Shown here: positions 4,113-60,480 of the stretch, piece by piece
Layout: each line of letters starts with the position of its first letter
Position numbering within the stretch: the stretch's first letter is position 1
DNA from: Candidatus Krumholzibacteriota bacterium
GTDB lineage: Bacteria > Krumholzibacteriota > Krumholzibacteriia > LZORAL124-64-63
Length of the DNA: 64,000 nt
Assembly: GCA_024277025.1 (NCBI GenBank)
Contig: JAJRWA010000048.1
Coordinates: forward strand, 29,653 to 93,652
Direction of reading: 5' to 3'
Made by a program: the position numbers and the translations under genes
Notes under the pieces: generated by a model
Told to the model about the DNA's origin: nothing
The model's input: only the letters and a program-made list of their open reading frames with translations
Databases searched by the model: none

Positions 4113-4231
4113 ACAAAGCCTTTTCGGCTTGCGCCGGCTTGGTCTTGCATTAAATTGGACAAAAAGATCCAGATACACCAGTCCACTCCGCAGGGAGGCC
4201 TAAGATTAATACAGCCGCCATCACACAGGAA

Positions 4232-5452
4232 ATGACACTTTTTGCCATCACCGAGGAATTCCCCGAGACCATCCCTGTTTTTGTGACCAACGGCTACGAG
4301 CACGTCGGCGACGAGAAGAAGCGCCAGGCCCAGGGCAGGATGGTCACCCTGGCCCAGGCCATGCAGATGAAGAACAAGGACGCGGCTGCCTTCATCAAAC
4401 TGCTGGAAGCGGCGGTGGCCGAGAACCGCCAGCAGCAGGACGTGACCCTCAACACCATCGAGGACGAGAACGAGATCTTCCCCACCAGCGGTGATATCCG
4501 CGTGGCCGGCTTGTTGCCTTGTCCGGTGCGCATCCCGCTGCTCGAGGCGTTCGACAGCCTGAGCAAGAAGATCACCGCCGAGACAGGCAAAACCGTGGGC
4601 ATGAAGCTGGCTGCGGCCTCGGTCGGTGCCGATATCCTGGATCAGGGCCTGGCCAGGATCGAAACCGAGGCCGACCTGCCGGATATTTTCCTCTCGGCCG
4701 GCTTCGAAGCCTTCTTCGACCAGAAGAACATGGCCCGCTTCAAGGACAAGGGCGTGTTCACGGACCGCAGCTGGGACGAGCACAACGCCATGATGAAGCC
4801 CTATGGCCTGCAGGATCCGGACGGCCACTACGCCATGCTGGGTATCGTGCCGGCTGTGTTCCTGGTCGACAAGACCCAGCTCGAAGAGGGCGAAGAGATC
4901 CCCCGGACCTGGGCCGAGATCCTGGGGCCCCGCTTCAAGGGCAAGGTCAGCATGCCGGTCGGCGACTTCGATCTGTTCAACGGCATCCTGCTGACGATCT
5001 GGAAGGAATTCGGCGACGAGGGCGTCGCAGCCATCGGGCGCAACCTGCTGGAAGGCATGCACCCCAGCCAGGCCGCGGGCCGGTTCGCGCCCAAGGGCGG
5101 CAAGGGCCCGATGATTTCGGTCATTCCGTATTTCTTCAGCAAGATGGCCCAGTTCAACCCGCACGCGGAGATCGTCTGGCCCAGCGACGGCGCCGTGGTC
5201 AGCCCCATTTTCATGCTGCTGAAAAAGAGCGCGCCCAGGGAAGCCGAGCAGATCGCCGAGTTCTTCGCCAGCAAGGAAGTGGGCGAGATTCTGGCCCATC
5301 GCGGCCTGTTCCCCAGTTGCCATCCCGAGGTCGAGAACCACGTGCCGGACGAGGCGCCGCTGATGTGGCTGGGCTGGGACTTCATCCGCGAGAACGATCT
5401 GGGCGCGCTCATTCCCCGGGTCAACGATATCTTTCTGAAGGCAGGCGAATGA
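4232..5452 (+). CDS. cytoplasmic DUF1858-domain protein fused to an ABC-type substrate-binding-protein (SBP) fold
   Basis: The N-terminal roughly 65 aa (FPETIPVFVTNGYEHV...MVTLAQAMQMKNKDAAAFIKLLEAA) fit the DUF1858 pattern. The remainder resembles periplasmic-binding-protein type II folds but has no signal peptide. The stop overlaps the next gene (TGAcATG). Confidence 0.55.
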   Translation: MTLFAITEEFPETIPVFVTNGYEHVGDEKKRQAQGRMVTLAQAMQMKNKDAAAFIKLLEAAVAENRQQQDVTLNTIEDENEIFPTSGDIRVAGLLPCPVRIPLLEAFDSLSKKITAETGKTVGMKLAAASVGADILDQGLARIETEADLPDIFLSAGFEAFFDQKNMARFKDKGVFTDRSWDEHNAMMKPYGLQDPDGHYAMLGIVPAVFLVDKTQLEEGEEIPRTWAEILGPRFKGKVSMPVGDFDLFNGILLTIWKEFGDEGVAAIGRNLLEGMHPSQAAGRFAPKGGKGPMISVIPYFFSKMAQFNPHAEIVWPSDGAVVSPIFMLLKKSAPREAEQIAEFFASKEVGEILAHRGLFPSCHPEVENHVPDEAPLMWLGWDFIRENDLGALIPRVNDIFLKAGE

Positions 5453-5453
5453 C

Positions 5454-6194
5454 ATGCGTTTCGTGACGGTTAGCGGTCCGCCCAGCTCGGGGAAGACCGC
5501 GGTGATCATCAAGACCCTCGAGCATCTGCAGAAGGCCGACAAACAGGTGGGCGTCGTCAAGTTCGACTGTCTGTTCACCGACGACGACGAGCTGTACCGC
5601 AAGCACGGTATCAAGGTGCGCAAGGGCCTGGCCGGCGCTTTGTGTCCGGACCACTACTTCGTCAGCAACGTCGAAGAGTGCGTGCAGTGGGGCAAGCTGG
5701 AGGGCCTGGACGTGCTGGTCAGCGAGAGTGCCGGCCTGTGCAACCGCTGCTCGCCGCATATCCGGGAGATCATGGCCGTCTGCGTGATCGACAACCTCAG
5801 CGGCATCAACACTCCCAAGAAGATCGGGCCCATGCTGAAGGCCGCCGACGTGGTGGTGATCACCAAGGGCGACATTGTCAGCCAGGCCGAGCGCGAGGTG
5901 TTCGCCGCGCGGGTGCACATGGTCAACAGCAAGGCGCGCATCCTGCACGTGAATGGTATCACCGGCCAGGGCAGTTTTGAGTTGAGCACCGTCTGGACCG
6001 AGGTCGAAGACACCGAGACAGTGGAAGGATTGCGCCTGCGTTTCAGCATGCCGGCGGCCCTGTGCTCGTACTGCCTGGGCGAGACGCGCATCGGGTCGGA
6101 TTTCCAGATGGGCAACGTGCGCAAGATGGACCTGGAGATGCCCACGGGTGTGAAGACCGATGGCGGACCGACCACTCTGGGGGGCCAGTCATGA
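5454..6194 (+). CDS. G3E-family P-loop GTPase (HypB/UreG/CobW/MeaB-like metallochaperone-type)
   Basis: Walker A GPPSSGKT, a Cys/His stretch ALCPDHY, the switch/ESAGL motif VLVSESAGLCNRCSP, and the NKxD-like VVITKGDI. Tightly coupled to the flanking genes. Confidence 0.7.
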   Translation: MRFVTVSGPPSSGKTAVIIKTLEHLQKADKQVGVVKFDCLFTDDDELYRKHGIKVRKGLAGALCPDHYFVSNVEECVQWGKLEGLDVLVSESAGLCNRCSPHIREIMAVCVIDNLSGINTPKKIGPMLKAADVVVITKGDIVSQAEREVFAARVHMVNSKARILHVNGITGQGSFELSTVWTEVEDTETVEGLRLRFSMPAALCSYCLGETRIGSDFQMGNVRKMDLEMPTGVKTDGGPTTLGGQS

Positions 6195-7156
6195 GCCGTG
6201 GCCTGGCAACCCTGACGGTCGCCGACATGCTCGACCGCTGGCCTTTCGCGGCGCAGCATTTCGCGGACGGTGGTTATGCCGAGATTGCCGATCAGCCCGA
6301 GGCTGTACTGGGCGAGATTTTCGACTCTGGGCAACTGACGGCTCTGGACGAGTTCCTGACCATGATGGAGGACTTCCTCGGCGGCAACGAGGAGAAGGTG
6401 GCGGAGATCACCATCACCGGCGGCTTCGCCAAGGACGGCAGCGACGAGCCTGTGCGCAAGCTGACGGTTAAGGTCGGCGAAGTGGTCTGCATCGTCGGAC
6501 CCACCGGCAGCGGCAAGAGCCGCCTGCTGGCGGACATCGAGTGGGTGGCCCGGGGTGATACGCCGACCGGCCGCCACGTGACGATCAACGGCCAGGTGCC
6601 CGATGACAAATGGCGTTTCTCGTCGGAGTACAAGCTGGTGGCGCAGCTCTCACAGAACATGAACTTCGTCATGGACCTGACGGTGGAGGAGTTCCTGTCC
6701 CTGCACGCGGAGTCACGGCAGGTCGGCGATCCGGCCGGGAAGATCCAGCGCATCTGGAATTGGGCGAATGAGTTGGCGGGCGAGCCGTTTGCGCTCGATA
6801 CGCCGGTGACCAGTCTGTCGGGCGGCCAGTCGCGGGCCTTGATGATCGCCGATACGGCGGTGTTGAGCGCCAGCCCGGTGGTGCTCATTGATGAGATCGA
6901 GAACGCGGGCATCGACCGGCAGCAGGCGTTGGATATCCTGATCCGCGAAGAGAAGATCGTGCTGATGGCGACCCATGATCCGATTCTGGCCTTGATGGGG
7001 GACCGCCGGGTGGTGATCAACAACGGGGCGATGCGGAAGGTGATCGAGCCGAGCGAGGCGGAGCACGCCAATCTGGAGGAGTTGCGGGCCATTGACGAGC
7101 GGATGATGGGGCTGCGGCATCGGTTGCGGATGGGGGAACGGTTGGATGAGATATAA
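6191..7156 (+). CDS. ABC transporter ATP-binding protein with roughly 100-aa N-terminal extension (no cognate permease nearby)
   Basis: Walker A GPTGSGKS, signature LSGGQ, Walker B VVLIDEIE, H-loop ATHD. The start was set at ATG 6191, which overlaps the upstream stop (ATGA), rather than at the ORF-track start 6062. The N-terminal extension LTVADMLDRWPFAAQHFADGGYAEI...ALDEFLTMMEDFL resembles the DUF1858 pattern of the upstream protein. Confidence 0.75.
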   Translation: MSRGLATLTVADMLDRWPFAAQHFADGGYAEIADQPEAVLGEIFDSGQLTALDEFLTMMEDFLGGNEEKVAEITITGGFAKDGSDEPVRKLTVKVGEVVCIVGPTGSGKSRLLADIEWVARGDTPTGRHVTINGQVPDDKWRFSSEYKLVAQLSQNMNFVMDLTVEEFLSLHAESRQVGDPAGKIQRIWNWANELAGEPFALDTPVTSLSGGQSRALMIADTAVLSASPVVLIDEIENAGIDRQQALDILIREEKIVLMATHDPILALMGDRRVVINNGAMRKVIEPSEAEHANLEELRAIDERMMGLRHRLRMGERLDEI

Positions 7157-7423
7157 GGGGATCCGGAATTGTTCACTGTACACCGTAGGTGCACCCTGTC
7201 CCTTTCACCATATGAGTATTCAGCGGGGAGCGCTCTCTGGCTCTGCCGGTCCGTATTTTGTTGTGGTCCAGTTATCGGGGAGCAGATTCGCGGCATTGGG
7301 ATCTTTTATTGATCGGAGAACGGGATATCCCGGTTGTTGAGTCCGGTGTCAAGAGGCGGAGGTTCGGGCCTATGTGGCATCCGGGGCTTCCGGAATGATA
7401 TGAGTTCGCCCTCCTGCTGTAGC

Positions 7424-7504: not shown

Positions 7505-9004
7505 TTAGAACCCGTTGACCCTGACCGGCTCCCAATGCCCGACAACGTTGCCATCGCCCAACTGACCATAGGTGTTGGCGCCCCAGGCCCACAGGGTCCC
7601 GTCACTCCGCAGGGCCAGATTGTGACTTCCGCCCGCCGCGATCATGGTGATATCGGTGAGATTGTTCACCCAGGTGCGCACATCGGAGTTGTTGTAGGTC
7701 CCGTCGCCCAGTTGGCCAAACCCATTGCCGCCCCAGGACATGACCCGGCCATCGGCACCCAGGGCCAGGCTGTGGAAAGATCCTGCGGCCACGGCCAGGA
7801 TGCTATCAATCAATTCCACTCCGTTCGGTCCTCTGCTGGTCGCGTCGCTGTATCGACCCAACTGGCCTTCGGCATTGACGCCCCAGGAATATACGGCACC
7901 TGACTCATGCAAGGTCAGCACATGGAGGTAGCGCGTCGAGATGGCGGTGTAGTTGTCCGTATTGGCTATGGCCGAAGGTGTGTTGCCCAGGACAAGATCC
8001 CCGTCGGTCACCCGGCCCAGCAGGCCGCCAGAATTAGATCCCCAGGAGGACAGAGGACTATCGTGTGTGCCGTCGCTAAAAGGCTTGAAGAAATTGTCGT
8101 TGTTGCCAGCCGCGACCAGGCCCGGCGTGTGCCAGAAACTGGTAAGCACCAGGGTCGGTACCTCGACCCAGCCACCCTCGTAGCCCAGGCCCAGATGGCC
8201 ACCCGTGTTGCTACCCCACACGTAGACGTCCCCATTCCCGGTGACGCCCAGTGAGTGGGTGCGTCCCGCCGCCACCGCAGTAAAATTCGTCGGCGCGGAG
8301 ACGAGGGTTGGCGACCAGTGTGGCTGGTTGTCGCCGACGCCCAGGGCACCATAGGTGTTGTAGCCCATGGCGTACAGCCGGCCACTACCGGTCAGCACCA
8401 AAGTATGTCGCCAGCCCGAAGAGACGGCTACCACGTCAGTGACGCCGGCCACCAGGACCGGCTCGTGCGCGTGTTGGAAGGAGCCGATACCCAGTTGGCC
8501 GTCGTCATTCCGGCCCCACGCGTAGAGGAAGCCCTGGGCGTCAACCAGGAACGAGCAAAAATCACCGCACGCTATAAGCCTGATGCCAAGTGCCTGGGTG
8601 GGGGTTGCTGCGATCTGGGTGGATAAATCGCTTGTGCCGGCGTCATTGACTGCAGCGACCCGATAATGGTAGGTCGTGCCGTTGGTCAGATTCGCGTGGA
8701 CAAATGGTGGCGCCGCAACCGCGATGGCCGAGTCGTCGACCTGGACCGACTCGTCCAGGTCCCAGTAGACAATGTAGCCGGTGGCATCTGAGACAGTGGC
8801 CCAGGTCAAGGTTATGCTGGTCGGGGCCGCGGTGGCGGTCAACCCGCTCGGGATGCCCGGCGGCACCGGCGCCTGGACCGCCGTTGGGGTGTTGTTGTCG
8901 CAGCCCGAGCCCACAAGAGCCAAACCGAGAATCAGAACAGTCACGACGCGACGGTGGAACTTGGGGTGAGCGTGATGACTTCGGGTACTAATTTGCTTGG
9001 ACAT
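7505..9004 (-). CDS. lipoprotein with fibronectin type III domain and RCC1 (regulator of chromosome condensation) beta-propeller repeats
   Basis: Lipobox LVGSGC, an FN3-like stretch (LTATAAPTSITLTWATV...YHYRVAAVN), and repeated RCC1 motifs (WGRNDDGQLG, GYNTYGALGVG, WGSNTGGHLGLG, WGVNAEGQLG, WGANTYGQLGDG). Confidence 0.7.
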   Translation of the reverse strand: MSKQISTRSHHAHPKFHRRVVTVLILGLALVGSGCDNNTPTAVQAPVPPGIPSGLTATAAPTSITLTWATVSDATGYIVYWDLDESVQVDDSAIAVAAPPFVHANLTNGTTYHYRVAAVNDAGTSDLSTQIAATPTQALGIRLIACGDFCSFLVDAQGFLYAWGRNDDGQLGIGSFQHAHEPVLVAGVTDVVAVSSGWRHTLVLTGSGRLYAMGYNTYGALGVGDNQPHWSPTLVSAPTNFTAVAAGRTHSLGVTGNGDVYVWGSNTGGHLGLGYEGGWVEVPTLVLTSFWHTPGLVAAGNNDNFFKPFSDGTHDSPLSSWGSNSGGLLGRVTDGDLVLGNTPSAIANTDNYTAISTRYLHVLTLHESGAVYSWGVNAEGQLGRYSDATSRGPNGVELIDSILAVAAGSFHSLALGADGRVMSWGGNGFGQLGDGTYNNSDVRTWVNNLTDITMIAAGGSHNLALRSDGTLWAWGANTYGQLGDGNVVGHWEPVRVNGF

Positions 9005-23759: not shown

Positions 23760-25565
23760 CTACTGCACCATCACCTGGAATTTCAGCGAAAAACTGCTGG
23801 GCCCGGAAATATCCCGGCCCAGAAAAATACCGCGGGGGCGGATGCGGATGTGCGTGACCGCTGGATCGTACCCCAGGGCGTCGGGCACCGGTCGGTAGCT
23901 GAAACTGGCGCCGCCGTCATTGGAGAAGGCGATCAGGCGCCGGCGCAGCCGCAGGCCACTGCTGACCGGGCCGTCGACGAACAGGACCGCCCCGGTCGTC
24001 GAGCCGGGGAATGTGTTCACGTACAGAGCCGTGTTGGCGGGCACCGGATTGATGACTTCGACCGTGTTGCGGTCGACCGTGCCGGCCCTGATGTTGCTGG
24101 TCGTCACCGTGCAAACCAGGGTCGCGCCGGGAATCGCCTTGGGGTTGGCCGCGCCGTTGATCGGGTCGGCCACCGTTTCGGTGAAACTGGCCGAGGTGAG
24201 TTCGGCGTCGGGCAGCACGACATTCAGGGCCATGGTGCCGGTATCATTGGCCGGATTGAAGTCGAAGGAACCGCCGCTGACGCTGACCAGCAGGTCGGGT
24301 GATCCGACGGCGCCGGGATCCGGCTGCACGGTGAATTCCAGGGGCAGGCTCTGGCCGGCCAGGACCGGCCCCGGTCGGCTCCAGGTGATGACAGGCAGGG
24401 CGCCGGTGTTCACGGTCCAGCCGCTGCCGGTCGTGCCGGTGTAGGCCAGGCCGGCGGGCAGGGTCACCGTCAGGCTGACCGGCAGGGGCTCGTCGCTGGG
24501 GCCGTTGTTGACCAGGGTCAGCGCGATCCGGCCGGGTTCCAATACGAACAGGGGATCGTCCGGGGCCGCGGTGAAGGCCAGGTCGGTCAGGGGCGTGTTG
24601 GTCACCGAAATGACTTCGGCCGACAGCAGCACCAGGTCCCGCCCCGAGCGGTAGACGGTCGTGGCCTGGATGTCGCCGGCGTTCAGGTAGGGCGTGACGT
24701 CGTAGATATCCAGATCCACGCCCCACTGGTCGCTCAGCCCGGCGGTGTTGACCGTGGAATTGAACTGGTTGTTGACCGGATTCAGGGGGTCCAGCAGGGC
24801 GTTGCCGTTGAAGGTCAGCCCCTCGGTATAGCCATTGAGGCTGCCGCTGTTCTCGGCGTCGCCTTCCCAGGTCAGGTGCCCCACCTTGCCGTTGATGTCG
24901 CTGGCGGCGATCTCGAAATCGGTGGCCGTCACGGCGATCTGGCCGCCGCGGTAGTACTGGAAGCCGTCGAAGATGTTGACCACGCGGTTCGATTCGTCCG
25001 GATGCTCGTAGACCACGATCAGCGACCAGCCGGCCAGCACCGCCTGCACGTTGCAGTGGGGCCAGGCCGTGTTGACGTCCAGATTGCCGAAAGTGTAGAG
25101 TCCGTTGCCCTTGGCTGCGACCAGGGCGGTCACGTCGGCCATGCCGCTGAAGAAATCGTAACGGCTGAAGCCCAGGCTGAAGACCTCGGTGAACTGGCGA
25201 TCGGCCGTGACCGCGGCCCCGTCGAGGGTCACGTCCCAGTCCGGCGTGCGTTGGGTCGACAGGAACTGATCGGACCAGGAGCCGGCCCAGTACAAGTAGG
25301 CGGCCCGGACCGTGGCGCCGGCCGGCAGGTCGGTCAAGGCCGCGGTGTCGTAGTTGTCCACGGCACAGGCGTCGGTCAGGTTCGAGCCGCGGCGCAGCGA
25401 GCCGGCGGTGCCGACGAAGTTCACGTGGCCGGCGTGGGTGGCGTGCAGGCTGATCGGCGTGCCGGCGCGGACGCTGCCGGGCAGCAGCAGCCAGCCGCTG
25501 AGCAGCAGCGGGATCAGGCCACGAAGGCGCCGGTAGTCCGGCTGATGTCTAGCGCAGCATCTCAT
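23760..25565 (-). CDS. secreted DUF11-domain surface protein with N-terminal MshQ/LamG-like beta-sandwich region
   Basis: Signal peptide. The N-terminal motif DACAVDNYDTAALTDLPAGATVRAAYLYWAGSW is reminiscent of MshQ/LamG-type proteins (from memory, low certainty). DUF11 repeat TLVNNGPSDEPLPVSLTVTLPAGLAY. The C-terminal about 60 aa (NPVPANTALYVN...AVTHIRIRP...FQVMVQ) are shared with three downstream paralogs. The gene overlaps the giant gene's stop by 17 nt. Confidence 0.5.
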   Translation of the reverse strand: MRCCARHQPDYRRLRGLIPLLLSGWLLLPGSVRAGTPISLHATHAGHVNFVGTAGSLRRGSNLTDACAVDNYDTAALTDLPAGATVRAAYLYWAGSWSDQFLSTQRTPDWDVTLDGAAVTADRQFTEVFSLGFSRYDFFSGMADVTALVAAKGNGLYTFGNLDVNTAWPHCNVQAVLAGWSLIVVYEHPDESNRVVNIFDGFQYYRGGQIAVTATDFEIAASDINGKVGHLTWEGDAENSGSLNGYTEGLTFNGNALLDPLNPVNNQFNSTVNTAGLSDQWGVDLDIYDVTPYLNAGDIQATTVYRSGRDLVLLSAEVISVTNTPLTDLAFTAAPDDPLFVLEPGRIALTLVNNGPSDEPLPVSLTVTLPAGLAYTGTTGSGWTVNTGALPVITWSRPGPVLAGQSLPLEFTVQPDPGAVGSPDLLVSVSGGSFDFNPANDTGTMALNVVLPDAELTSASFTETVADPINGAANPKAIPGATLVCTVTTSNIRAGTVDRNTVEVINPVPANTALYVNTFPGSTTGAVLFVDGPVSSGLRLRRRLIAFSNDGGASFSYRPVPDALGYDPAVTHIRIRPRGIFLGRDISGPSSFSLKFQVMVQ

Positions 25566-28500
25566 GGGTCGTTTCCTGGTTGAGCCGGACCCGGAACCGC
25601 AGATACGGTCCCTGGGCCGTGTAGTCCACCGCCGAGAAATCGCGGTCGCGATAACCGGTGAAGTTGTAGCCGAGACTGAGCCAGATATCCTCGAGCAGTT
25701 TGTAGCCGCCGCTCAGTCCGGCGCTGTAGTCGACGATGCCCGTGCGCCAGGCGTGCCGCCCGGCGGCGCGGGCGCCGATATCCCAGTGGCTGCCCAGGAA
25801 GTGACGCCACTCCAGGCCCAGCTGGTCGGTCGTGCTTTCGTAACGGCGGCCGGCGATCGTGTCGCGGCCATAGCGCACTCCGATCAGGGTGGAAAGCTGG
25901 TCCCGCTCGCCGAACATGCGCAGCAGGTTCAGGTTGTTCACCACGCGCCAGCTGGACAGGGCCGTCAGGTCGCCGGTCTGGTCCTCGGCCCGCCACGACA
26001 GGCGGTGCAGAATCGTCCATGGGTTATCATCCGGCCGCCACGACAGGCCGACGCTCACATCGGACAGATAGTGGTGCCCGGCCAGGCGGTAGTCCGTGCG
26101 CACCAGTCGCAAGCTGGCCAGCAGGCCGGTCTGCGTGCCTGGTTCGACGTGCACGCCGCCGCTCAGGCCCCATTTTTCGGACTCGGTGCTGGTGCGGTAT
26201 TCCAGGCGCTGGTCCACCAGCCACAGGCCGCCGCGGTAGGTGAAGCCGAAGGTGCCGGCGGTGAAGTCGCTGTCGATCGTCGGTGCGGCAACAGTCGAGT
26301 CTGACGGTGCGCCGCTGCTGCGGCCGTGGTCCAGTCCGCCGTCCAGATACCAGTGGTCGTTAAGGCGCAGGCTCTGCTTCAGGCCCAGATTGGCAAAGAC
26401 GCGGCGGTCGCTTTCGCGGCTGCGCCGCTCGGCCGAAGAAACCAGCCGCGCCCCGTGCCAGGGCACCGATTCGACGCCCAACCGGGTGCGGTGAGTGGCC
26501 GGCCCGCCGCCATCGACCAGTTCCTGGGCCAGAAACAGCTTCTGGTTGCGCACGACTTCGTACTCCAGGGCGGCTGTCGTGCGGGTCGGGAAGTCGGCAA
26601 TGTCATCCTGGCCGGCGATGGCCTGCTCGCGCCCCAGCCGGATGCGGCCGCGGCCCTCGAGCACTTTCACCGAGGCGTCGGCTGTCAATTGGCGGGCTTG
26701 CTGCAAGGTACCGTCGCTCTGCTCGTCGTTGGCTGCGCGCAGGCCCAGCCCGGCGGTGAACACACGGCTGTTGTGGTTCACCTTCATCTCGCCGAACTGG
26801 CGCTCGGCGGTGCTGACCAGATCGCGCTGGGCAAACACGGTGGCGTCCAGCCGCCAGGCTTCGTGGGGCTGCCAACGGGCGTCGGCGCCGTATTTGCGTG
26901 CACCCGACTCGCTGGCGTTCTGGTGGCCGAGGCCGAATCCGGCCTGTTGGTCGCGGTAGTACAGCCGGCCGATCAATGGCCCGGCGCGCTGGCTGAGTTC
27001 GCCGAACCAGGCATCCCGTCGGCCGGTGCCGCGAATATCGCTGCCGGCATACTCGGCCTTCAAGCGCAGCGACTGAGTCAAGTCCCAGCGGGTGTCCACA
27101 CCGGCCAGAACATCGGCCTGGCCACCCTGGGTGCCTTCCCGGATGCCGGTCACGCCGACCTCGACCGGGCCGGCGCCGGGTCGCCAGGAGCCGCGCCCGC
27201 CGACGGTGACTTCGGCGCTGCTGGCGGTCTCGGTCTCGTACTCGGCAATGATCCAGATCGGGTTGAAATTCTCGTCCTGGCTGGGGATCGGTTCCTTGAA
27301 GAACAGGGTGCCGTCCAGGTCGTCCAGGGTGTAGTCGACCGAGCGGGTCAGGTGCCGCTCGCTGATAATGATCTCGCTGCGATAGCGGTCCCGCACCTGC
27401 AGGATAATCTTCTCGGACTGGGGGATCAGCCGGCCCGCGGTCAGGCGGTACAGCCCAGAGGTGCCGTCGCCCCGGATCTCGTCCCGCCGGAAATTCTGCC
27501 GGTTCTCGCTGGCAAAGACGTCGAACCCCAGCTGCGCGCCTCGCCGACTGCTGCGCAGACCGGTCAGCGCCCGGTTGTAGCGCCCCAGTTCGGTCACCGT
27601 CAGGCCCGAGTTGAAATCGCCGTACAGGGCGTAGAACTGAGCCCGCTCGAGCCGGATGTACAGGTGGTCACTGGTCGGCGCGTCGTGCTTCTGGACCACC
27701 GCGTCGCCGTACACCGTGTAGTACGCGTCGGGGTCCACCACGCCGAACAGGCCCGGCACCGGCCGCCGTTCCGGGTCGGTGCTGTCGTAGGCCAAAGTCA
27801 GCAGCCACTTGCCTTTCAGGCGGCCCTTGGCAAAGAAGGCCAGGCGCCCGTCGGCATAGAAATCCTCGTTCCGGTCGGCAGCCGCCAGCTGTTCAAGATT
27901 GCCGCTGACCGTGTTGTAGCCCACGGTCCCGGACACGACCCCGGCCAGGATCCAGTCACGGGCCGCGGGCTGCAGCCAGGCCCGCAGTTCCTCTTCATGG
28001 TCGAGCAACCCCAGGTTGAGCACCGCTTCGCCCGAACTCGTGGTCGGAGCCAGGGTCAGCAGGGCCACGCCGTCGGGCCCGATGGTGTAGGTGGGGATCT
28101 TCTCCTGCAGCTCTGTGATGGTCTCGCGCTGGGCCTGGCCCTTCTCGCGCCAGGCTTCGTGCGGGGGCGCCACGGTGAACTTGCCGACCACCTCGCGGCG
28201 CGCCGGATAGCCCATCGAGTCGGTCAGGCGCACCGCAATGACGGGCTTCGTCTTGCCGTCGGCCACCAGCCGGGATCGTTCGGGCACCAGCTGGACAAAG
28301 ACCGGCGGACCGGAGTAGTGGATCCTGCGCTCCAGGTGGCGGACCAGCCTGCCGCGGGTATCGACGATGTCCACGGCCAGCAGGTTGTCGCCGTCGGTGA
28401 GGTCCAGTCCGGTCCAGGTGCTGACGGCGATCCGGCCGTCCGGCCCGACGATCCGGCCCGCGAAATTCAGGCGCCCGGCGGCCTTGCCGTTCAGGAACAG

Positions 28501-31389
28501 GCGCAGGCTGTCGCTGCCGGCGTGCTGCACCGCGAGCTTGATGGACGGCAGATGGGGCAGGTGTCCGTGCGGCGGCCAGAGGATGCGCTCACCGGCGCTG
28601 GCGCTGGCCAGCCAGGCCTCGTCATAGCTCGGCATCGTGGCCGCGGGCTGGACGGTGCCACCGGCATCCGGCCAGGCTTCGCCCGGCCGGAAACCCGTGA
28701 CCGGCCGCCGGGCCTGCTCGTGATCGTGCAACGCCTGGTCCGGCAGCCGGTGCACCACTTTCCGGGTCCACACCTGCAGGGTCACCCGCCGGTTGGCGGC
28801 CCGCCCCGCTGCGGTGCGGTTGTCGGCCACCGGTTCCCTGGCGCCCAGGCCGTACATGGCCAGCTGGGCCTCACTCAGGTGCAGCTGCCGGGAAATGTAG
28901 TTGCCGACCGCCTCGGCCCGGGCCAGCGAAAGAGCGTGGTTGTCCGTGTACACCGGATGGGCGCCGGGCCGGATGCGCTGGCTGTCCGTGTGCCCGATGA
29001 CCTTGACCGCCGTGATCTCCAGGTTCGCCAGACCGGCCAGCAGGGTGTCGATCTCCGCCAGATCCGCCGGTCCCAGCTCGGCACTCAAGCTGGCAAAGCG
29101 CGGCCGCAGGACCATTTCCGGCTGTTCCTGGCGCAATACCTCGGGCACCAGATTGATCGCGGTGCGCACGACTGCGGACCGCAGGTTGCGCTCGGTCGGG
29201 GTGTCGCACACCAGCAGGGTCTTTACCGCCAGGTCAGCGCGGTGCAGCGGTGGGACGACCGTGGCGCCATATTCGATCGTGAGAGCCTGATCGGCCGGCA
29301 AGTCACCCAGCCGGTAGACCAGGGTGCCGTCGCCGACCACCGGGTCCGGCACCGGCTGGCCGCCCAGACGCGAAGAACCGGGCGTGTAGGCAATCCCCGC
29401 GGGCAGGACCACCGTCAGGCGCAGGTTGCGCAGGGGCACCAGATCCGCGTCGATCCGGACCTGGCCCGTGACCGTCGCACCTTGCAGGGCGGTGTCCACG
29501 GCCAGCCCGAGCGTGCCGGCCACCGGCGGCACCCGCTGCAGCCGGAAATCACTGCGCCAGACCGTGCCGCCCTGCAGGTCGACCAGATGGGACCAAGGGT
29601 GGGCGCTGTACAGCGTGTCACCGCTGCAGTCGCCCGGCACGTAGTCGGGCGGCAGGCTTTCGCGGTCCAGTTGCACGACGTGGGCGCCGGGCGCGACGCC
29701 CGCGATATGGTAGCGCCCCTGGGCGTCCGTCACGGCGAAGGCGCCGCTCTCGAGATAAATGCGCACGCCGGCGATGCCGGTGCCCGAATCGGCTTCACAA
29801 TCGAAGCCCAGGACCCGACCGAGCAGGGTGTTGCTTGCGCCGAACAGATCGCGCCGCACGTTGACCAGCGCGCTGGCCTCGTTGGAGGTGACGGCGGCCC
29901 AGCGGGCGGTCGCCCGGTTGACCGCGTCGCCGGCCGGCGCGCCCGGCACCACGGCCGCCACGTAGCGAAAGGTCACGGTCGCGCCCGCGGCCAGCTCGGC
30001 GTGGGCGAAGGTGAGGGTGCGGCCATCGGGCGTGATGACGGGATCGCCCACCGGTTGGCTGTCCAGCAGCGTCGAACCGGCTTCGTAGCGAAAGCCGAGC
30101 GGCAGCTTGTCGGTCACCGTCAGGTTCGACGCGTCGTTGTCGGTCGTGTTCTGGACGCGGATTTCGTAGGCGAGAAAGTCGCCGATGGCCACACTGGCCC
30201 GCCCGGCCGTCTTGGTCACGAAGAGGTCGGTGTCGACCCGGTCGACCGGCAGGTCCAGCAGGAGCGGCTGGTCCGGCATGGCGAACGGTTCACCGCGGGA
30301 GCCGGGTGTCAGCAAAGCGTAGGGGCCGCCGGCGACCGACTGCAGCTGCGCGTCGGTCAGGCGCGACGGCGCGCGGTAGCCCGGCGGCACGTCCAGCTCA
30401 AGCCGGTACTGGCCCGCCTGTACGTGCGGGAAACGGAAACCGCCGGGGCCAAATTCATAGATTTGGCCGCCCGTGTCGCTGACCGGCCGGCCGGTCGTGA
30501 CCGTCGCCGGAAAGGCGGCGCTGCCGTCGACACCCAGCACGACGGCCGGCAGCCCGGTGCTGTTGTCGATGAGGCGAACCGTGACACCGTCGAGGGCCTC
30601 GCCGGTGCGGGAATCGAATACGCGGCCCACCGGATCGAAACGAGCGGTGGCCTGGGACTGGTCGGCCGGATCCCGGACGTCGGCGTAGACCAGACTGACA
30701 GTCTGGTCCTGGCCCACGCTCAGGCTGCCGTCCTTGGCCTGGGCCACAGCGCCGGTGGTCTGAATGAAGCCGAGAAATTCACCGGTGTCCGGCCCGGTCT
30801 CGTACAACCTGAGCAATTCACGATCGCCCAGGCTGTCGTTGCGAATGGTTAACAGGATCGTGTCCCGGCTCACGGCATCCCGGTTCTGATCCGCATCGAC
30901 CAGGTGCAGAAAAACGGGATCGCCCTGGGCGAAGAGGGTGGTCGAAACCAGCGGGACCGGCTGCGAGATATTGATCGGCGCCCCGCCGACGGGGACTGGC
31001 CCGGGCAGGGTCCGGAAAGGACCGCCGGCCTCGCCGCTGACGCTGTATTCGGTGCTGACCACGGGTACGGCGAGGGCTGTCCGCAGGCCGGGCTCGTAAC
31101 GCATGAAACCCGCTTCGCTGCCGGAACGCGCCGGCACGACGACCAGATTGACGGCATTGCTCAACCGGTTGAGCCCGCTGCGCGAGCCGGCACCGTAGGT
31201 GGCGCTGGCGATGTTCGTGATGATCGTGCCCGGCGGCTGCTGGGCGCTGGCCGGCGTGGGAGTGCCGGAGTGGAAAAAGATCAGCGGCACCGCAACCAGG
31301 AAACACCGCCGCCACACATGCGGAATCACGGCTCTGAAAAGAGCCGCGATTCCGCAGGAGGCAGTGCGTTTGGTGCCGTTGCGCAACAT
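25549..31389 (-). CDS. giant (1946 aa) outer-membrane-associated protein: DUF11 and carboxypeptidase-regulatory-like domains, internal OmpA-like peptidoglycan-binding domain, probable C-terminal beta-barrel
   Basis: The N-terminus GTIITNIASATYGAG resembles the small DUF11 paralogs. CarbopepD_reg-like folds at about aa 255-335 and 525-575 (GVRIYLESGAFAVTDAQGRYHIAGVAPG). DUF11 at about aa 390-500 (LAYEIRVQNTTDNDASNLTVTDKLPLGFRY). OmpA C-like domain at about aa 760-875, roughly nt 28764-29109 (VIGHTDSQ...NHALSLARAEAV...NRRVTLQV). A roughly 1050-aa C-terminal region of alternating amphipathic strands ends ...PYLRFRVRL. The antisense 1508-aa ORF has low complexity and was rejected. Confidence 0.6.
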   Translation of the reverse strand: MLRNGTKRTASCGIAALFRAVIPHVWRRCFLVAVPLIFFHSGTPTPASAQQPPGTIITNIASATYGAGSRSGLNRLSNAVNLVVVPARSGSEAGFMRYEPGLRTALAVPVVSTEYSVSGEAGGPFRTLPGPVPVGGAPINISQPVPLVSTTLFAQGDPVFLHLVDADQNRDAVSRDTILLTIRNDSLGDRELLRLYETGPDTGEFLGFIQTTGAVAQAKDGSLSVGQDQTVSLVYADVRDPADQSQATARFDPVGRVFDSRTGEALDGVTVRLIDNSTGLPAVVLGVDGSAAFPATVTTGRPVSDTGGQIYEFGPGGFRFPHVQAGQYRLELDVPPGYRAPSRLTDAQLQSVAGGPYALLTPGSRGEPFAMPDQPLLLDLPVDRVDTDLFVTKTAGRASVAIGDFLAYEIRVQNTTDNDASNLTVTDKLPLGFRYEAGSTLLDSQPVGDPVITPDGRTLTFAHAELAAGATVTFRYVAAVVPGAPAGDAVNRATARWAAVTSNEASALVNVRRDLFGASNTLLGRVLGFDCEADSGTGIAGVRIYLESGAFAVTDAQGRYHIAGVAPGAHVVQLDRESLPPDYVPGDCSGDTLYSAHPWSHLVDLQGGTVWRSDFRLQRVPPVAGTLGLAVDTALQGATVTGQVRIDADLVPLRNLRLTVVLPAGIAYTPGSSRLGGQPVPDPVVGDGTLVYRLGDLPADQALTIEYGATVVPPLHRADLAVKTLLVCDTPTERNLRSAVVRTAINLVPEVLRQEQPEMVLRPRFASLSAELGPADLAEIDTLLAGLANLEITAVKVIGHTDSQRIRPGAHPVYTDNHALSLARAEAVGNYISRQLHLSEAQLAMYGLGAREPVADNRTAAGRAANRRVTLQVWTRKVVHRLPDQALHDHEQARRPVTGFRPGEAWPDAGGTVQPAATMPSYDEAWLASASAGERILWPPHGHLPHLPSIKLAVQHAGSDSLRLFLNGKAAGRLNFAGRIVGPDGRIAVSTWTGLDLTDGDNLLAVDIVDTRGRLVRHLERRIHYSGPPVFVQLVPERSRLVADGKTKPVIAVRLTDSMGYPARREVVGKFTVAPPHEAWREKGQAQRETITELQEKIPTYTIGPDGVALLTLAPTTSSGEAVLNLGLLDHEEELRAWLQPAARDWILAGVVSGTVGYNTVSGNLEQLAAADRNEDFYADGRLAFFAKGRLKGKWLLTLAYDSTDPERRPVPGLFGVVDPDAYYTVYGDAVVQKHDAPTSDHLYIRLERAQFYALYGDFNSGLTVTELGRYNRALTGLRSSRRGAQLGFDVFASENRQNFRRDEIRGDGTSGLYRLTAGRLIPQSEKIILQVRDRYRSEIIISERHLTRSVDYTLDDLDGTLFFKEPIPSQDENFNPIWIIAEYETETASSAEVTVGGRGSWRPGAGPVEVGVTGIREGTQGGQADVLAGVDTRWDLTQSLRLKAEYAGSDIRGTGRRDAWFGELSQRAGPLIGRLYYRDQQAGFGLGHQNASESGARKYGADARWQPHEAWRLDATVFAQRDLVSTAERQFGEMKVNHNSRVFTAGLGLRAANDEQSDGTLQQARQLTADASVKVLEGRGRIRLGREQAIAGQDDIADFPTRTTAALEYEVVRNQKLFLAQELVDGGGPATHRTRLGVESVPWHGARLVSSAERRSRESDRRVFANLGLKQSLRLNDHWYLDGGLDHGRSSGAPSDSTVAAPTIDSDFTAGTFGFTYRGGLWLVDQRLEYRTSTESEKWGLSGGVHVEPGTQTGLLASLRLVRTDYRLAGHHYLSDVSVGLSWRPDDNPWTILHRLSWRAEDQTGDLTALSSWRVVNNLNLLRMFGERDQLSTLIGVRYGRDTIAGRRYESTTDQLGLEWRHFLGSHWDIGARAAGRHAWRTGIVDYSAGLSGGYKLLEDIWLSLGYNFTGYRDRDFSAVDYTAQGPYLRFRVRLNQETTHEMLR

Positions 31390-52643: not shown

Positions 52644-52879
52644 TGTATCTGGATCTGCTGGTCTGCCTGGTCCTGGTCCTGTCCGGCGTGGCGGCCATGA
52701 ATACCCGCAATCTGGTTTCGGCTGCGGTCATGGTCGGCGTCGTCAGCCTGCTGGTCAGCTATCTCTTCCTGCGCATGGGCGCGCCCGACGTGGCGATGAC
52801 CGAGGCGTCCATCGGTGCGGGCCTCAGCACCATCATCTTCCTGATCGCCATCCGGCGCACCGAGGAGGAGGAGCGATGA
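52640..52879 (+). CDS. DUF4040-like small membrane subunit (MnhB N-terminal-domain homolog; MbhD-like)
   Basis: 79 aa with 2-3 TM helices. ATGA overlap with mrpG. Confidence 0.45.
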   Translation: MMYLDLLVCLVLVLSGVAAMNTRNLVSAAVMVGVVSLLVSYLFLRMGAPDVAMTEASIGAGLSTIIFLIAIRRTEEEER

Positions 52880-53589
52880 AACAGATCCTGTCGGTCGTGC
52901 TGCTGCTGGCCATGGGCTGGTTCCTGGTGGGGCTGGTGCCCCTGGGACAACCCACTGAGCCGGGCCGCGTGGCGCAGCACTATATAGACAACGGTATCGA
53001 CGAGAACCGCGGCGCCAACCTGGTGACCAGCGTTATCGTCAACTACCGCGGCTTCGATACGCTCGGCGAGGTGACGGTGCTCTTCCTGTCGGTCGCCGGT
53101 GCGGGCTTCGTCCTGCGGCGGCGCGACGGCCTGGTCCGCCACGAGCACCGGCCCTCAAGTGAGATCCTGCAAACCGGTGCCCGGATGCTCTTTGCGCCGA
53201 TCGTCGTGTTTGGCGCCTACATCTTCGTGCACGGACACCTGTCGCCGGGTGGCGGCTTCCAGGGCGGTGCGGTGATCGCCTCGGCGGTGATGCTGCTGCT
53301 GCTGGCCGATCGTTCCCACCACCTGCCGCACGGCCTGATGCACTGGCTCGAGTCCATGGCCGGCTTTGGCTACGTCATGGCCGGTGTGGCCGGTTTGGTC
53401 GTGGCCGGATCCTTCCTCTCCAACCAGGGCGTGCTGCCCCTGGGCACCTGGAACCGCCTGTTCTCGGCCGGCATCATCCCGATCATCTACATCCTGGTCG
53501 GGCTGAAGGTGGGCACCGAGCTGAGCTCGCTGCTCGACGTGATGATCGACACCGGCCGGCCCGCCCGGCAGGAAGGGGGCCGGTCATGA
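52876..53589 (+). CDS. MnhB-domain membrane subunit (MrpB-like; MbhE/F-like)
   Basis: The canonical MnhB motif NLVTSVIVNYRGFDTLGEVTVLF. ATGA overlap upstream. Confidence 0.7.
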   Translation: MKQILSVVLLLAMGWFLVGLVPLGQPTEPGRVAQHYIDNGIDENRGANLVTSVIVNYRGFDTLGEVTVLFLSVAGAGFVLRRRDGLVRHEHRPSSEILQTGARMLFAPIVVFGAYIFVHGHLSPGGGFQGGAVIASAVMLLLLADRSHHLPHGLMHWLESMAGFGYVMAGVAGLVVAGSFLSNQGVLPLGTWNRLFSAGIIPIIYILVGLKVGTELSSLLDVMIDTGRPARQEGGRS

Positions 53590-53954
53590 ACGCCGTGACG
53601 CCCGCGACCCTGTACCTGGTGACGGCGATCCTGCTGATCCTGATCGGCCTGGCCGGCGTCCTGGTGCGGCGCAATATCCTGAAGATGGTGCTGGGCTTTG
53701 CCCTGGCCGATACCGGCATCAACCTGCTGATCGCCACCCTGGGCAGCAACCCCGAACGCACCGCGCCCATCCTGGACAAACCTGAACTGTTGGCGAACCC
53801 CTCGCTGGTGGTCGACCCGATCCCGCAGGCCCTGGTGCTGACCGCCATCGTCATCGGTCTCGGGGTCACGGCCCTGATGCTGGCCTACGTCATTCGCCTG
53901 TACGCTCTGCGCCAGAGCCTGGACATCCGTGACTTCGGGAGGCTGAAGTGGTAA
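53586..53954 (+). CDS. NuoK/MrpC-like small membrane subunit (MbhG-like)
   Basis: 122 aa, 3 TM helices, NuoK-like MVLGFALADTGINLLIA. Confidence 0.7.
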   Translation: MNAVTPATLYLVTAILLILIGLAGVLVRRNILKMVLGFALADTGINLLIATLGSNPERTAPILDKPELLANPSLVVDPIPQALVLTAIVIGLGVTALMLAYVIRLYALRQSLDIRDFGRLKW

Positions 53955-56900
53955 TCGATCCCATCCTGCTGGTAGCCGTACCGCTTGGTGTTGCTTTCCT
54001 GCTGCCTTTGTTCAGCAAGCTGGGCCGGACCGCGGCCACGGCCGTGCAAGGGCTGACCATCGTGTTCACGGCCCTGGTGGCGGTGTCCTGGTTGCCCGGT
54101 CTGCTGGACGGAAGCCTGGCGCCGGCCAATATCCTGACCGGCGGCTACGACGCCCCGATCGCGATCAACCTGCACTTCGGCTTGACCGAGGCCGTGCTCT
54201 GTCTGCTGGCTTCGCTGACCGCCCTGGGCAGTTTGTCCTACCTGTCGGTGCGCGAAGACGAGCACACGATCGGGCGCAGCGGCCTGCTGCAACTGCTGAT
54301 CATGACCGGTGCCTTCGGCCTGATCATGACCCGCGACCTGTTCAACCTGTTCGTGTTCCTGGAGATCGCTTCCATCGGCACCTACGCCCTGGTCGCCTTC
54401 GGCAAGGAAGAGACCAGCCTCGAGGCCGGCTTCAAGTACATGCTGACCGGCGCGGTGGCGAGCATCTTCCTGCTGATCGGCATCGCCTTCCTGTACAAGC
54501 TGACCGGCACCCTGAACATCGACGACATGGTGGGCCGGATGCCGCCGGCCGCGACGGCGGGCCTGGCTACGGTCATCCTGTTCCTGCTGATGGGCATGGC
54601 CATCGAGCTGAAGCTGCTGCCGGTCAACGGACCGGCCCTGGACCTGTATGACGGCGCGGACCCCGGCGTGATGGCCCTGCTGGTGGGCACCGTGGTCAAT
54701 GGCGTGCTGTTTGCCTTCTGGAAGATCGCCCTGCTGGTGCCCGGCACCTGGGACACGGCGATCATGACCCTGGGCATGGTGACTTTCGTGGGCAGCAACC
54801 TGCTGGCTGTCGCCCAGGATCGGCCGCGGCGCATGCTGGGCTACAGCTCAAGTGCCCAGATCGGCTTGCTGGTCTTTCTGGTGCCCCTGGTGCAACAGGG
54901 CACGGTGGCGTTGGCGGGCGCTGGCCTGCTGTTGATCAACCACACGCTGGCCAAAAGCGGCCTGTTGTGGCTGTCGGGCAAACATGCGGGCGAGACGCGC
55001 CGTGAATGGACCGGTGCCTTTGCCGGCAGCGTGGTGATGCGCACGGCCCTGATCATCTTCATTCTGGCGATCACCGGCTTGCCGCCCTTTCCCGGCTTCT
55101 GGGGCAAGTGGCAGGTCCTGAGCGACCTGATGGCCGGCGGTTACGGCTGGTGGGCGCTGCCGCTGCTGATCGGCTCGCTGCTGGAATTCGTCTACTACTA
55201 CGGCTGGTACCGGTATGTGCGCACGCCGGCGACCAGCAACGTTTCGGCGCGGCCATTGGGCGGGGCTTCCGACCTGGGTGGGGTCGTGGCTTTTGCCCTG
55301 GCCGCGCTGGTTTTCGGCGTGTGGCTCATGCGGGATCTGCCCGTGATGGGTGACCGGGTGCTGGTCTTCCTGACCGGTGTGGGCCTGGTGTTGACGCTGT
55401 TGCGTCGCCTGCCCCGCGTGGTGCTGGCCGCGACCGCGACGGCGGCCCTGGGCCTCGCGGCCTGGATCATGGCCACCGGCGGCGGTTTCGACCTGACGAC
55501 TCCGTCGGGCCTGTTCCACCTGCTGATCATCGGGGCCGGTCTGCTGGTGTCGATCGCCGGTTTGGCCGGCAGCTCGGGCACCGGTGAACGCTTCCACGGT
55601 CTGTTTCTGATCATGATCGCCTCGCTGCTGCTGCTGGTCAGCACCGACAACCTCCTGCTGTTCTTCGTGGCTTGGGAAGTGATGACCTGGACCAGCTATC
55701 TGGTGGTCACCTCCGGCCGGCTGGGCGCCAAACCCGGCCAGCTGTACATGGTGTTTTCCGGCGCGGCCGGCTTCCTGCTGCTCGGCGGGTTCATGCTGGC
55801 CATCGGCGCCGGCCACACCACGATCACCGGTCTGGGTCTGCTGACCGGATCGACGGCGGCCTGGACCTGGGGCCTGCTCGTAACCGGCTTCCTCGGCAAG
55901 TCGGCCGCCTGGGGCCTGCACATCTGGGCACCCGGTGCTTACAGTGAAGCCCCAGACCTGTTCACGCCGTTCCTGTCGGGCGTGATCTCCAAGATCCCCA
56001 TGTTCGGGATCGCCATGGTGGCCTTCCGCATCGCCGCGGGCAACCTGCCGGCCATCGGCGCGGTGGACCTGACCTGGTTGTTGGCGCTGATCGGCGGCCT
56101 GACCGCCTTCGGCCTGACCTTGGCCGCGGTGTTCCAGGAGGATGCCAAGAAGTTGCTGGCCTACTCGTCGGTCGGCCAGGTGGGCTACATCGTGGTCGGC
56201 CTGGCGATCCTGACGCCCCTGGGCTGGACCGCCGCCATGTTCCACGTCGTGCACCATCTCTTGTTCAAGGGCCTGCTGTTCCTGGCCATCGCCGGCGTGA
56301 TCATGCGCACCGGCACGCGCACCATGTACGAAATGGGCGGCCTGATCAAACGGATGCCCGTCAGCTTCATTTCGGTGCTGATCGGCATCATTGCCCTGTC
56401 CGGCGTACCGCCGCTGGCCGGCTTCACCGGCAAATGGCTGCTCTACCAGGCGCTGCTGGCCAAGGGCTGGCTGTTCATTCTGGTGCTGATGATGTTCTCG
56501 TCGGTCGTGGCCTTCATCTATATGTTCCGCCTGATCCACTCGGTCTTTCTCGGGCAGCTCAAGCCCCGGCACCGGGACATCAAGGAGGCGCCGCTGCCCC
56601 TGGTCATCTCCGAGGTGCTGATGATCGCCGGCGTGATGGCCCTGGCGGTGTTCCCGCAACTGCTGCTCAATCCGCTGAACGCCATGATGCACACCCAGTT
56701 CGGCCTGGACGCCCTGCGTATCGACGGCACGGTGCTGACCACCATGAGCGGCCACACACTGAACGCGACAGGCATGATGGTGCTGGTCCTGGTAATGTTC
56801 GTGGCCATGTTCCTGGTGCTGCTTCTGGTCAGCCCGCCCATGCGCAAGATTCGGCAGCTGGACATTGGCTTCGCCGGCGAGGTGCCACCGCCGGCCGAGG

Positions 56901-57115
56901 AAATCCACTTCGCCTCGCGCTTCGCCCAGCCCTACGAGCGGGCCTGGGCACCTTTCCTCAAGCCGCGGGCGACAAACTTCTGGCGGTCGGTGACCGAGAA
57001 CACCGGCGGCGTGATCGAGGCCGTGCGCAAGATCTATTCGGGCAACGGGCAGACCTACGTCCTGTATCCGGTGCTGTTGGTGGTCGTGTTCGCCCTGTTG
57101 GGCCTGGGAAGGTAG
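53948..57115 (+). CDS. fused tandem antiporter-like subunit (two NuoL/M/N-MrpD-type modules in one 1055-aa protein; MbxH+H'-like)
   Basis: GTG 53948 with a GGGAGG RBS. Two complete Proton_antipo_M-type modules, each with the YSS.xQ.G motif (LGYSSSAQIGLLVF at about aa 300, LAYSSVGQVGYIVV at about aa 740) and conserved TM Lys/Glu positions. Confidence 0.75.
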   Translation: MVIDPILLVAVPLGVAFLLPLFSKLGRTAATAVQGLTIVFTALVAVSWLPGLLDGSLAPANILTGGYDAPIAINLHFGLTEAVLCLLASLTALGSLSYLSVREDEHTIGRSGLLQLLIMTGAFGLIMTRDLFNLFVFLEIASIGTYALVAFGKEETSLEAGFKYMLTGAVASIFLLIGIAFLYKLTGTLNIDDMVGRMPPAATAGLATVILFLLMGMAIELKLLPVNGPALDLYDGADPGVMALLVGTVVNGVLFAFWKIALLVPGTWDTAIMTLGMVTFVGSNLLAVAQDRPRRMLGYSSSAQIGLLVFLVPLVQQGTVALAGAGLLLINHTLAKSGLLWLSGKHAGETRREWTGAFAGSVVMRTALIIFILAITGLPPFPGFWGKWQVLSDLMAGGYGWWALPLLIGSLLEFVYYYGWYRYVRTPATSNVSARPLGGASDLGGVVAFALAALVFGVWLMRDLPVMGDRVLVFLTGVGLVLTLLRRLPRVVLAATATAALGLAAWIMATGGGFDLTTPSGLFHLLIIGAGLLVSIAGLAGSSGTGERFHGLFLIMIASLLLLVSTDNLLLFFVAWEVMTWTSYLVVTSGRLGAKPGQLYMVFSGAAGFLLLGGFMLAIGAGHTTITGLGLLTGSTAAWTWGLLVTGFLGKSAAWGLHIWAPGAYSEAPDLFTPFLSGVISKIPMFGIAMVAFRIAAGNLPAIGAVDLTWLLALIGGLTAFGLTLAAVFQEDAKKLLAYSSVGQVGYIVVGLAILTPLGWTAAMFHVVHHLLFKGLLFLAIAGVIMRTGTRTMYEMGGLIKRMPVSFISVLIGIIALSGVPPLAGFTGKWLLYQALLAKGWLFILVLMMFSSVVAFIYMFRLIHSVFLGQLKPRHRDIKEAPLPLVISEVLMIAGVMALAVFPQLLLNPLNAMMHTQFGLDALRIDGTVLTTMSGHTLNATGMMVLVLVMFVAMFLVLLLVSPPMRKIRQLDIGFAGEVPPPAEEIHFASRFAQPYERAWAPFLKPRATNFWRSVTENTGGVIEAVRKIYSGNGQTYVLYPVLLVVVFALLGLGR

Positions 57116-57119
57116 CGCG

Positions 57120-58034: not shown

Positions 58035-58038
58035 AACG

Positions 58039-58707: not shown

Positions 58708-58713
58708 GGAGCC

Positions 58714-60476: not shown

Positions 60477-60480
60477 GCGC

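Follow-up and report, generated by a model that had tools for sequence, protein, structure and literature searches.

A conserved trio of a cytoplasmic DUF1858–substrate-binding-fold protein, a G3E GTPase and an ABC ATPase: a candidate soluble metal- or cluster-handling module linked to Hcp in relatives

To our knowledge, G3E GTPases such as HypB and UreG serve solely as metal or cofactor chaperones. SufC, the ATPase of SufBCD, is a permease-less cytoplasmic ATP-binding cassette (ABC) ATPase that acts in a metallocluster context. RIC/YtfE, which combines ScdA_N and hemerythrin domains, repairs iron centres and works with Hcp in E. coli; Hcp itself is an iron-only enzyme. Ni-CODH, which is matured by CooC, CooT and CooJ, is a homologue of Hcp, and FbpA and FutA are periplasmic ferric-binding proteins of ABC importers. 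We know of no account of the assembly or repair of the Hcp hybrid cluster, nor of a function assigned to the domain DUF1858. A three-gene set of Candidatus Krumholzibacteriota joins features of several of these systems. It lies in a 64-kb stretch of contig JAJRWA010000048.1 (assembly GCA_024277025.1), hereafter the window, and encodes P1, a DUF1858 protein with a substrate-binding protein (SBP) fold, P2, a G3E P-loop GTPase, and P3, an ABC ATPase with an additional N-terminal domain. The closest working analogies to this trio are HypAB, SufBCD (through SufC) and RIC/YtfE, and it is a member of none of them.

It is proposed, with a probability of about one in two, that the trio is a self-contained, soluble, nucleoside triphosphate (NTP)-driven module for delivering or repairing a metal or cluster, tied to Hcp and N-oxide stress, and not a transporter. 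In other phyla the trio adjoins hcp and therefore probably handles a metal or iron–sulphur (Fe–S) centre rather than serving transport. An earlier note on this DNA had also favoured metal or cofactor handling over transport; that reading gains from the Cys/His ligands of P2, the FutA1/FbpA fold of P1 and, in one clade of relatives, links to Hcp, a HypA-like protein, Rrf2 regulators and HcpR-type boxes. No paper describing the gene set was found in the literature on DUF1858, on Hcp with HypB, CobW, GTPase, Rrf2 or ABC, or on HcpR regulons, and the literature searched yielded no description of Hcp hybrid-cluster assembly or repair, or of DUF1858 function.

The two-domain architecture of P1 recurs in more than 1,900 detectable relatives, and P3 is conserved even more strongly. 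A scan of one genome per species placed relatives of the trio in 292 species genomes, which belong to Krumholzibacteriota and other FCB-type metagenome-assembled genomes (MAGs), Desulfuromonadales, Cloacimonadota, Spirochaetia, Fermentibacteria and Latescibacterota; Desulfuromusa kysingii DSM 7343 and Pelovirga terrestris (both Desulfuromonadales) are cultured carriers. The arrangement is far beyond chance, because all 72 of the 72 non-redundant loci with a long enough contig, drawn from several phyla, have P1, P2 and P3 in this order on one strand, with median inferred intergenic gaps of 1 and 2 nt. In one locus (L091, positions 5066–6991), P1, with its DUF1858 and SBP_bac_6 domains, is fused in frame to P2 to give a protein of 641 amino acids (aa), with no N and no frame break; the fusion is followed by the ABC ATPase gene, an 80-aa Cys-rich gene and a small ferredoxin gene, and is known from a single long-read contig. 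In another locus (L048), a run of N gave the false appearance of a P1–P2 fusion.

The relatives divide into two sister clades. In clade A, to which the window and about 40 Krumholzibacteriota-type loci belong, P1 is 57–86% identical and the trio stands bare. Clade B (P1 45–53% identical) comprises Desulfuromonadales, Cloacimonadota, Spirochaetia and Fermentibacteria, and 37 of its loci carry a fourth gene directly 3′ of P3. The 80-aa product of this gene (MHDGC...CxxC...CxxC...VTPCHA) is HypA-like only in its N-terminal MH(D) and its CxxC...CxxC, and scores 17.5–22 bits (E 1.7e-4 to 4e-3) against HypA PF01155, under the cut-off of 28.9. The gene hcp adjoins the trio in 28 of 41 clade B loci, and also in L086–L090. 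The adjacent Prismane-family gene encodes a true Hcp/hydroxylamine reductase (NF003658, 840 bits against a cut-off of 367), and its placement varies by lineage, being divergent (as in Desulfuromonadales), downstream or upstream. CooC/CooT/CooJ, which provide accessory NTPase-driven maturation of a prismane-family enzyme, are the nearest conceptual precedent for an Hcp-linked set, although CooC is a MinD-type ATPase rather than a G3E or ABC protein, and there are no homologous proteins between the two systems.

Regulatory genes recur in the same neighbourhoods. An Rrf2 gene lies directly 5′ of the trio in at least ten clade B loci, and its best, sub-threshold scores are to IscR and SUF regulators. 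The order Rrf2-(cupin)-P1-P2-P3-80aa-(cupin)-hcp occurs in three Cloacimonadota MAGs (L055, L071, L076) and in five long metagenome contigs. The order hcp-P1-P2-P3-80aa is seen in L002 (duplicate L003), where genes for an Rrf2 regulator and a GAF–sigma-54 (NorR-like) activator lie upstream, and two cysteine desulfurase genes, a DUF7411 gene and TusA flank the module (4777–6914 and 13648–15132). In L087–L089 small Cupin_2 genes are inserted into the operon, either separating the Rrf2 gene from P1 or standing between hcp and the 80-aa gene. P1 in Desulfuromonadales (L045–L085) is preceded at −70 to −95 by one or two TTGAC-N4-(G/A)TCAA boxes, and a second copy often lies toward the divergent hcp. 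These boxes match the HcpR motif that Rodionov et al. described for Desulfuromonas and Geobacter (PMC1274295), and the regulatory-motif link of the clade B module to N-oxide control is probable rather than proven. DUF1858 proteins also occur in the NnrR regulon of Bradyrhizobium diazoefficiens (PMC6710368) and, as DrpB, in a Thermus N-oxide regulon (PMC6282519).

P1 opens with its DUF1858 domain (PF08984; residues 1–54, 41.6 bits, gathering cut-off 32.2), whose family profile matches PDB 2fi0 (E 2.7e-9), and continues into SBP_bac_6 (residues 148–388, 250 bits in Pfam). In its AlphaFold2 (AF2) model (pLDDT 86), a long linker helix connects the helical DUF1858 head to an alpha/beta body of two lobes. 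The earlier note had described a DUF1858 protein with an SBP fold and no signal peptide; both Pfam matches exceed their thresholds, and no signal peptide, lipobox or transmembrane segment was found in P1 with either of two candidate start codons (ATG or ATT), nor a leader in any homologue. DUF1858 forms the extreme N-terminus in every homologue. P1 is cytoplasmic, as judged from its sequence. An exact-sequence look-up of the window P1 returned no record.

The best Foldseek neighbours of the P1 body are the iron-binding proteins FutA1, FbpA and cFbpA (2pt2, 3od7, 1y4t; E ~1e-12), whose fold is shared by the C-terminal 320 aa of P1 (target TM-score ~0.66). P1 differs from the FbpA/FutA proteins in being cytoplasmic, in its low identity to them (~16%), in apparently not conserving the Tyr-Tyr/His/Glu ligands, in lacking a permease, and in having an invariant Cys in the expected first ligand loop. 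Next among the structural neighbours are AfuA (sugar phosphates), P5PA (pyridoxal phosphate, PLP) and the 2-AEP-binding protein (phosphonate). In PDB searches, the sequence likeness of P1 to any solved SBP was too remote for transfer of ligand residues. Across 83 sequences, residues C97, R100, D245, D247, H277, W316 and D319 are invariant; C97 and R100 lie in LLPCPVR just past the first strand, D245 and D247 in PVGDFDLFN, and H277 in HPSQ. Residue C97 is expected to sit in the first-strand ligand loop of an FbpA-type clamp. P1 resembles RIC/YtfE in its DUF1858/ScdA_N-type N-terminal domain, in the iron-donor role proposed for it, and in the link to Hcp and nitrosative stress. It differs in that P1, P2 and P3 have no hemerythrin match in Pfam; the module has an FbpA-like SBP fold in place of the di-iron domain, and adds two NTPases.

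Several observations weigh against the proposed metal or cluster module. It cannot be universally required, since Hcp matures without it in E. coli and many other organisms. Hidden Markov model (HMM) searches found no hcp, HypA-like or Rrf2 gene in the 64-kb window or in the flanks of the ~40 clade A loci, and the Hcp link is therefore transferred to the window by orthology. Motif inspection of the 83 P1 sequences showed that the FbpA Tyr-Tyr iron ligand pair is not kept, P-Y/x-F-F standing at residues 299–302. Finally, SBP_bac_6 relatives of P1 also bind sugar phosphates, PLP and phosphonates, and the cargo of P1 therefore need not be a metal.

The last two of these points would suit a reading in which P1 binds a non-metal small molecule (a compound related to N-oxides or hydroxylamine, a phosphorylated metabolite or a polyamine), and the two NTPases regulate its sequestration, its sensing or an enzymatic step. 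The proximity of P1 to AfuA, P5PA and the 2-AEP-binding protein, and the recurrence of DUF1858 in N-oxide-responsive proteins, are in keeping with this. Such a reading is nevertheless unlikely: it leaves unexplained the invariant metal-type Cys/His residues of P2 and the Cys-rich HypA-like partner, and it would give a role other than metal or cofactor chaperone to a G3E GTPase.

P2 matches Pfam cobW/HypB/UreG (PF02492) with 54.8 bits (cut-off 20.7) and conserves the motifs GPPSSGKT (Walker A), SESAG (ESxG) and TKGD ([NT]KxD). Its nearest relatives are HypB and UreG, and it stays below both equivalog cut-offs in NCBIfam, scoring 53.1 bits against hypB (TIGR00073, cut-off 121.2) and 32.6 bits against ureG (TIGR00101, cut-off 204.2). 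Residues C39, C64-P-D-H67, C96xxC99, C110 and C204xxC207 are invariant in 77 sequences. Pairwise alignments set C64 against the cysteine of the CPH motif in H. pylori UreG and against the CH motif seen in two HypB structures, 2wsm and 2hf8. C96/C99 fall close to the second Cys of HypB, and a Cys/His motif is present between Walker A and Walker B. The position of C64 and H67 is what we take to be the G3E dimer-interface metal site of HypB/UreG. The likeness to HypA/HypB and UreG/UreE thus comprises the G3E motifs, the interface Cys/His site and the MH(D)-CxxC-CxxC protein of clade B. The differences comprise the equivalog scores, the additional invariant C39, C110 and C204xxC207, the constant position of P2 between an SBP-fold protein and an ABC ATPase, and a neighbour, Hcp, that is not a Ni enzyme.

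These similarities could instead mean that the trio is a Ni, Co or Zn metallochaperone set for another enzyme, such as a [NiFe]-hydrogenase, CODH or urease, with P2 as a divergent HypB/UreG that has kept its ligands and, in relatives, a HypA-like partner. A group-4-hydrogenase-related membrane complex does lie 46 kb away in the window. Its NuoD-like subunit has one CxxC pair only, however, and may therefore not bind Ni. As P2 also scores far below the hypB and ureG cut-offs, and the conserved neighbour is Hcp rather than hydrogenase, CODH or urease, a set of this kind is distinctly improbable.

In P3, ABC_tran spans residues 90–235 (57 bits in Pfam). All the nucleotide-binding motifs ascribed to it by the earlier note are in place, namely Walker A (GPTGSGKS), the Q-loop (VAQLSQN), the signature (LSGGQ), Walker B (VLIDE) and the H-loop (ATHD); each is at least 90% conserved in 73 homologues and near-invariant across phyla. 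The best PDB and NCBIfam matches are nucleotide-binding domains (NBDs) of transporters, at 40–50 bits, far under every equivalog cut-off. Neither SufC nor ABC-F is among the top NCBIfam matches, and membership of P3 in either family was rejected. The module resembles SufBCD in having a permease-less cytoplasmic ABC ATPase, a metallocluster context and, in relatives, nearby Rrf2 (IscR/SufR-like) regulators. It differs from SufBCD in lacking a SufB/SufD scaffold and in the unique N-terminal helical domain of P3, which is not SufC-like by NCBIfam.

The earlier note had also seen no transmembrane partner nearby, and had named a co-conserved permease as a finding that would overturn its reading. 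Gene calling guided by third-codon-position GC content (GC3) detected no multi-transmembrane gene within ~30 kb of the trio in the window. Clustering of all flanking open reading frames (ORFs) from 81 loci returned no co-conserved transmembrane family; an ORF with four or more transmembrane segments lies within 1.5 kb in only 11 of the 81, and the families concerned are unrelated to each other. The description ‘permease-less’ is thus robust at the level of the gene neighbourhood. Set beside ABC importers, the trio has the NBD motifs and lacks both a permease in this sense and an exported SBP. That it is an ordinary ABC importer, with its permease encoded elsewhere and P1 exported non-classically or acting from the cytoplasmic side, is scarcely credible: homologues are annotated at source as ‘ABC transporter substrate-binding protein’ and ‘lipoprotein export ATPase’ and the best matches of P3 are transporter NBDs, but P1 starts with a folded DUF1858 domain and no homologue has a signal peptide or lipobox, no transmembrane family is co-conserved in the 81 loci, a G3E GTPase gene stands between P1 and P3 everywhere, and P3 reaches only 40–57 bits against transporter models.

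The region of P3 that precedes the ABC domain is shorter than the ~100 aa first estimated, at ~67–70 aa. Its AF2 model (~67 aa, pLDDT 83) contains helices at residues 10–16, 20–26, 30–34, 40–43 and 46–64, and the order of these helices, with two single-residue bridges, mirrors the modelled DUF1858 head of P1. The suggestion in the earlier note that this region echoes DUF1858 is borne out in part. In hhalign comparisons with P1 DUF1858, probabilities of 71% and 62% were obtained (E 3.7e-5 and 7.3e-5) over 60–63 columns. A Foldseek search at E up to 10 returned three PDB chains, the best being 2k5e, a verified bona fide DUF1858 protein, with a TM-score of 0.50 and a non-significant E of 5.5; the other two have TM-scores below 0.3. 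Set against this, the window domain has no Pfam DUF1858 match, and the matches of 3 of 24 relatives reach no better than E 0.013. Among 1.84 billion representatives, a profile search gave 74 matches, none of them a recognisable stand-alone DUF1858 protein. Nearly all are fragments of the same ABC family, the exceptions being one internal match (P0431) and two very long proteins (P0398, P0409) in which the matched stretches are short and repeated. The region is a probable but unproven DUF1858-like helical domain that appears specific to this family.

For the metal or cluster module that we favour, the identity of the cargo, the sequence in which it is passed on and its client are inferred. The cargo held by the two-lobe, FbpA/FutA-type clamp of P1 would be a metal species, and most likely iron or a fragment that contains iron. 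P2 would take over this cargo through its Cys/His interface site and its extra CxxC cysteines, and release it under GTP control. P3 would dimerise on ATP and perform mechanical work, opening either the clamp or the client, in the manner of SufC in SufBCD. Docking may fall to DUF1858 in P1 and to the DUF1858-like domain in P3. In clade B, where the module has a HypA-like partner and shares its location and, apparently, its regulation with hcp, the client would most likely be Hcp or Fe–S proteins damaged by NO; in the clade of the window, the same core would operate alone under its own repressor-type operator.

A narrower form of this mechanism is put forward tentatively, and we regard it as possible rather than probable. 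The trio would be a dedicated machine that assembles or repairs the [4Fe-2S-2O] hybrid cluster of Hcp, or NO-damaged Fe–S centres, with P1 as donor of iron or a cluster fragment, the HypB-like GTPase (with a mini-HypA in some lineages) as gate, and the ABC ATPase as source of power. If true, it would form a new class of chaperone for metallocentres, put together from ‘transporter’ parts. The gene set itself would bring metallocentre biogenesis a third type of NTPase pairing, and would set right a systematic mis-annotation of its members as iron or polyamine ABC transporters. As a candidate it is compact, widespread and clonable, and it ties hcp to a soluble ABC ATPase, a G3E GTPase and an FbpA-like fold.

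Table 1. Positions of the trio, its predicted control elements and other features in the window.
Feature	Position	Strand	Basis or remark
Promoter-like TTGCGC-N16-TAAATT	4129–4156	+	Phylogenetic footprinting
Inverted repeat TTGGACAAAAAGATCCA, probable operator	4155–4171	+	Phylogenetic footprinting
Shine–Dalgarno GGAGG (4194–4198) and probable P1 start codon ATT (4205)	4194–4207	+	Homologue N-termini
P1, DUF1858 + SBP_bac_6	4232–5452	+	Coordinates from the ATG start
P2, G3E P-loop GTPase	5454–6194	+	Nearest HypB/UreG
P3, ABC ATPase	6191–7156	+	N-terminal domain 6191–6391; ABC ATPase domain with C-terminal helical tail 6392–7156
Terminator-like hairpin (7237–7249) and T-run	7237–7259	+	Consensus scan only; 3′ of P3
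RCC1-repeat protein gene	7505–9004	-	Gene call; convergent, next after P3
Thiol-activated cytolysin-family gene	9448–11076	-	
Large secreted proteins	942–2753, 12542–14830, 25549–31389		
Mbx/Mbh-like cluster	52876–62747		

The translational coupling described in the earlier note was located at both junctions (Table 1). The P1 stop codon TGA (5450–5452) is separated by one base from the ATG of P2, giving TGAcATG, and the ATG of P3 overlaps the TGA of P2 (6192–6194) as ATGA. The true start of P1 is probably the rare codon ATT at 4205, and the ATG at 4232 internal, because homologues are 415 aa long and nine further residues that match their N-termini are encoded in frame upstream. This ATT lies 27 nt 5′ of the ATG and is preceded by GGAGG at a distance of 6 nt; from it the protein would begin MNTAAITQE-MTLF, in agreement with the N-termini MxxxxIxPEMTLF of the 415-aa homologues.

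Upstream of P1, close Krumholzibacteria-type loci (L006–L026, L001) share a layout of a promoter-like element and a palindrome (TTGCGx-N16-TAAATT, TTGGAyAAAAnGATCCA). A generic sigma-70 scan reported no promoter at the promoter-like site, and the promoter and operator assignments therefore rest on footprinting only. An exact copy of TTGGACAAAAAGATCCA occurs once in the window. In other branches of clade A a different palindrome, ATACC-N4-GGTAT, stands upstream of the trio (for example TTCCATACCAAATGGTATGGAA in L033), and together the clade A palindromes point to a dedicated repressor. An HcpR-type box, TTGAC-N4-GTCAA, is absent upstream of the window P1 at up to two mismatches.

The neighbours of the trio in the window encode secreted repeat proteins, the RCC1-repeat protein, a cytolysin-family protein and a LuxR-type regulator. 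The Mbx/Mbh-like cluster, which is group-4 hydrogenase-related, encodes MnhB/MbhE, a NuoK-like subunit, a fused Mrp-antiporter subunit of 1055 aa, NuoH, NuoB and a NuoCD-like subunit, and is followed by genes for a GltD/SudA-type Fe–S flavoprotein and a rubrerythrin. Two of the large secreted proteins have FlgD-Ig-type C-terminal domains, one with FG-GAP/ASPIC repeats and the other with LVIVD repeats, and the third (1946 aa) has DUF11, OmpA and CarboxypepD_reg domains. The cytolysin-family protein (542 aa) has a lipoprotein-like leader and matches the thiol-activated (cholesterol-dependent) cytolysins with E 2e-33, which is unexpected for this lineage.

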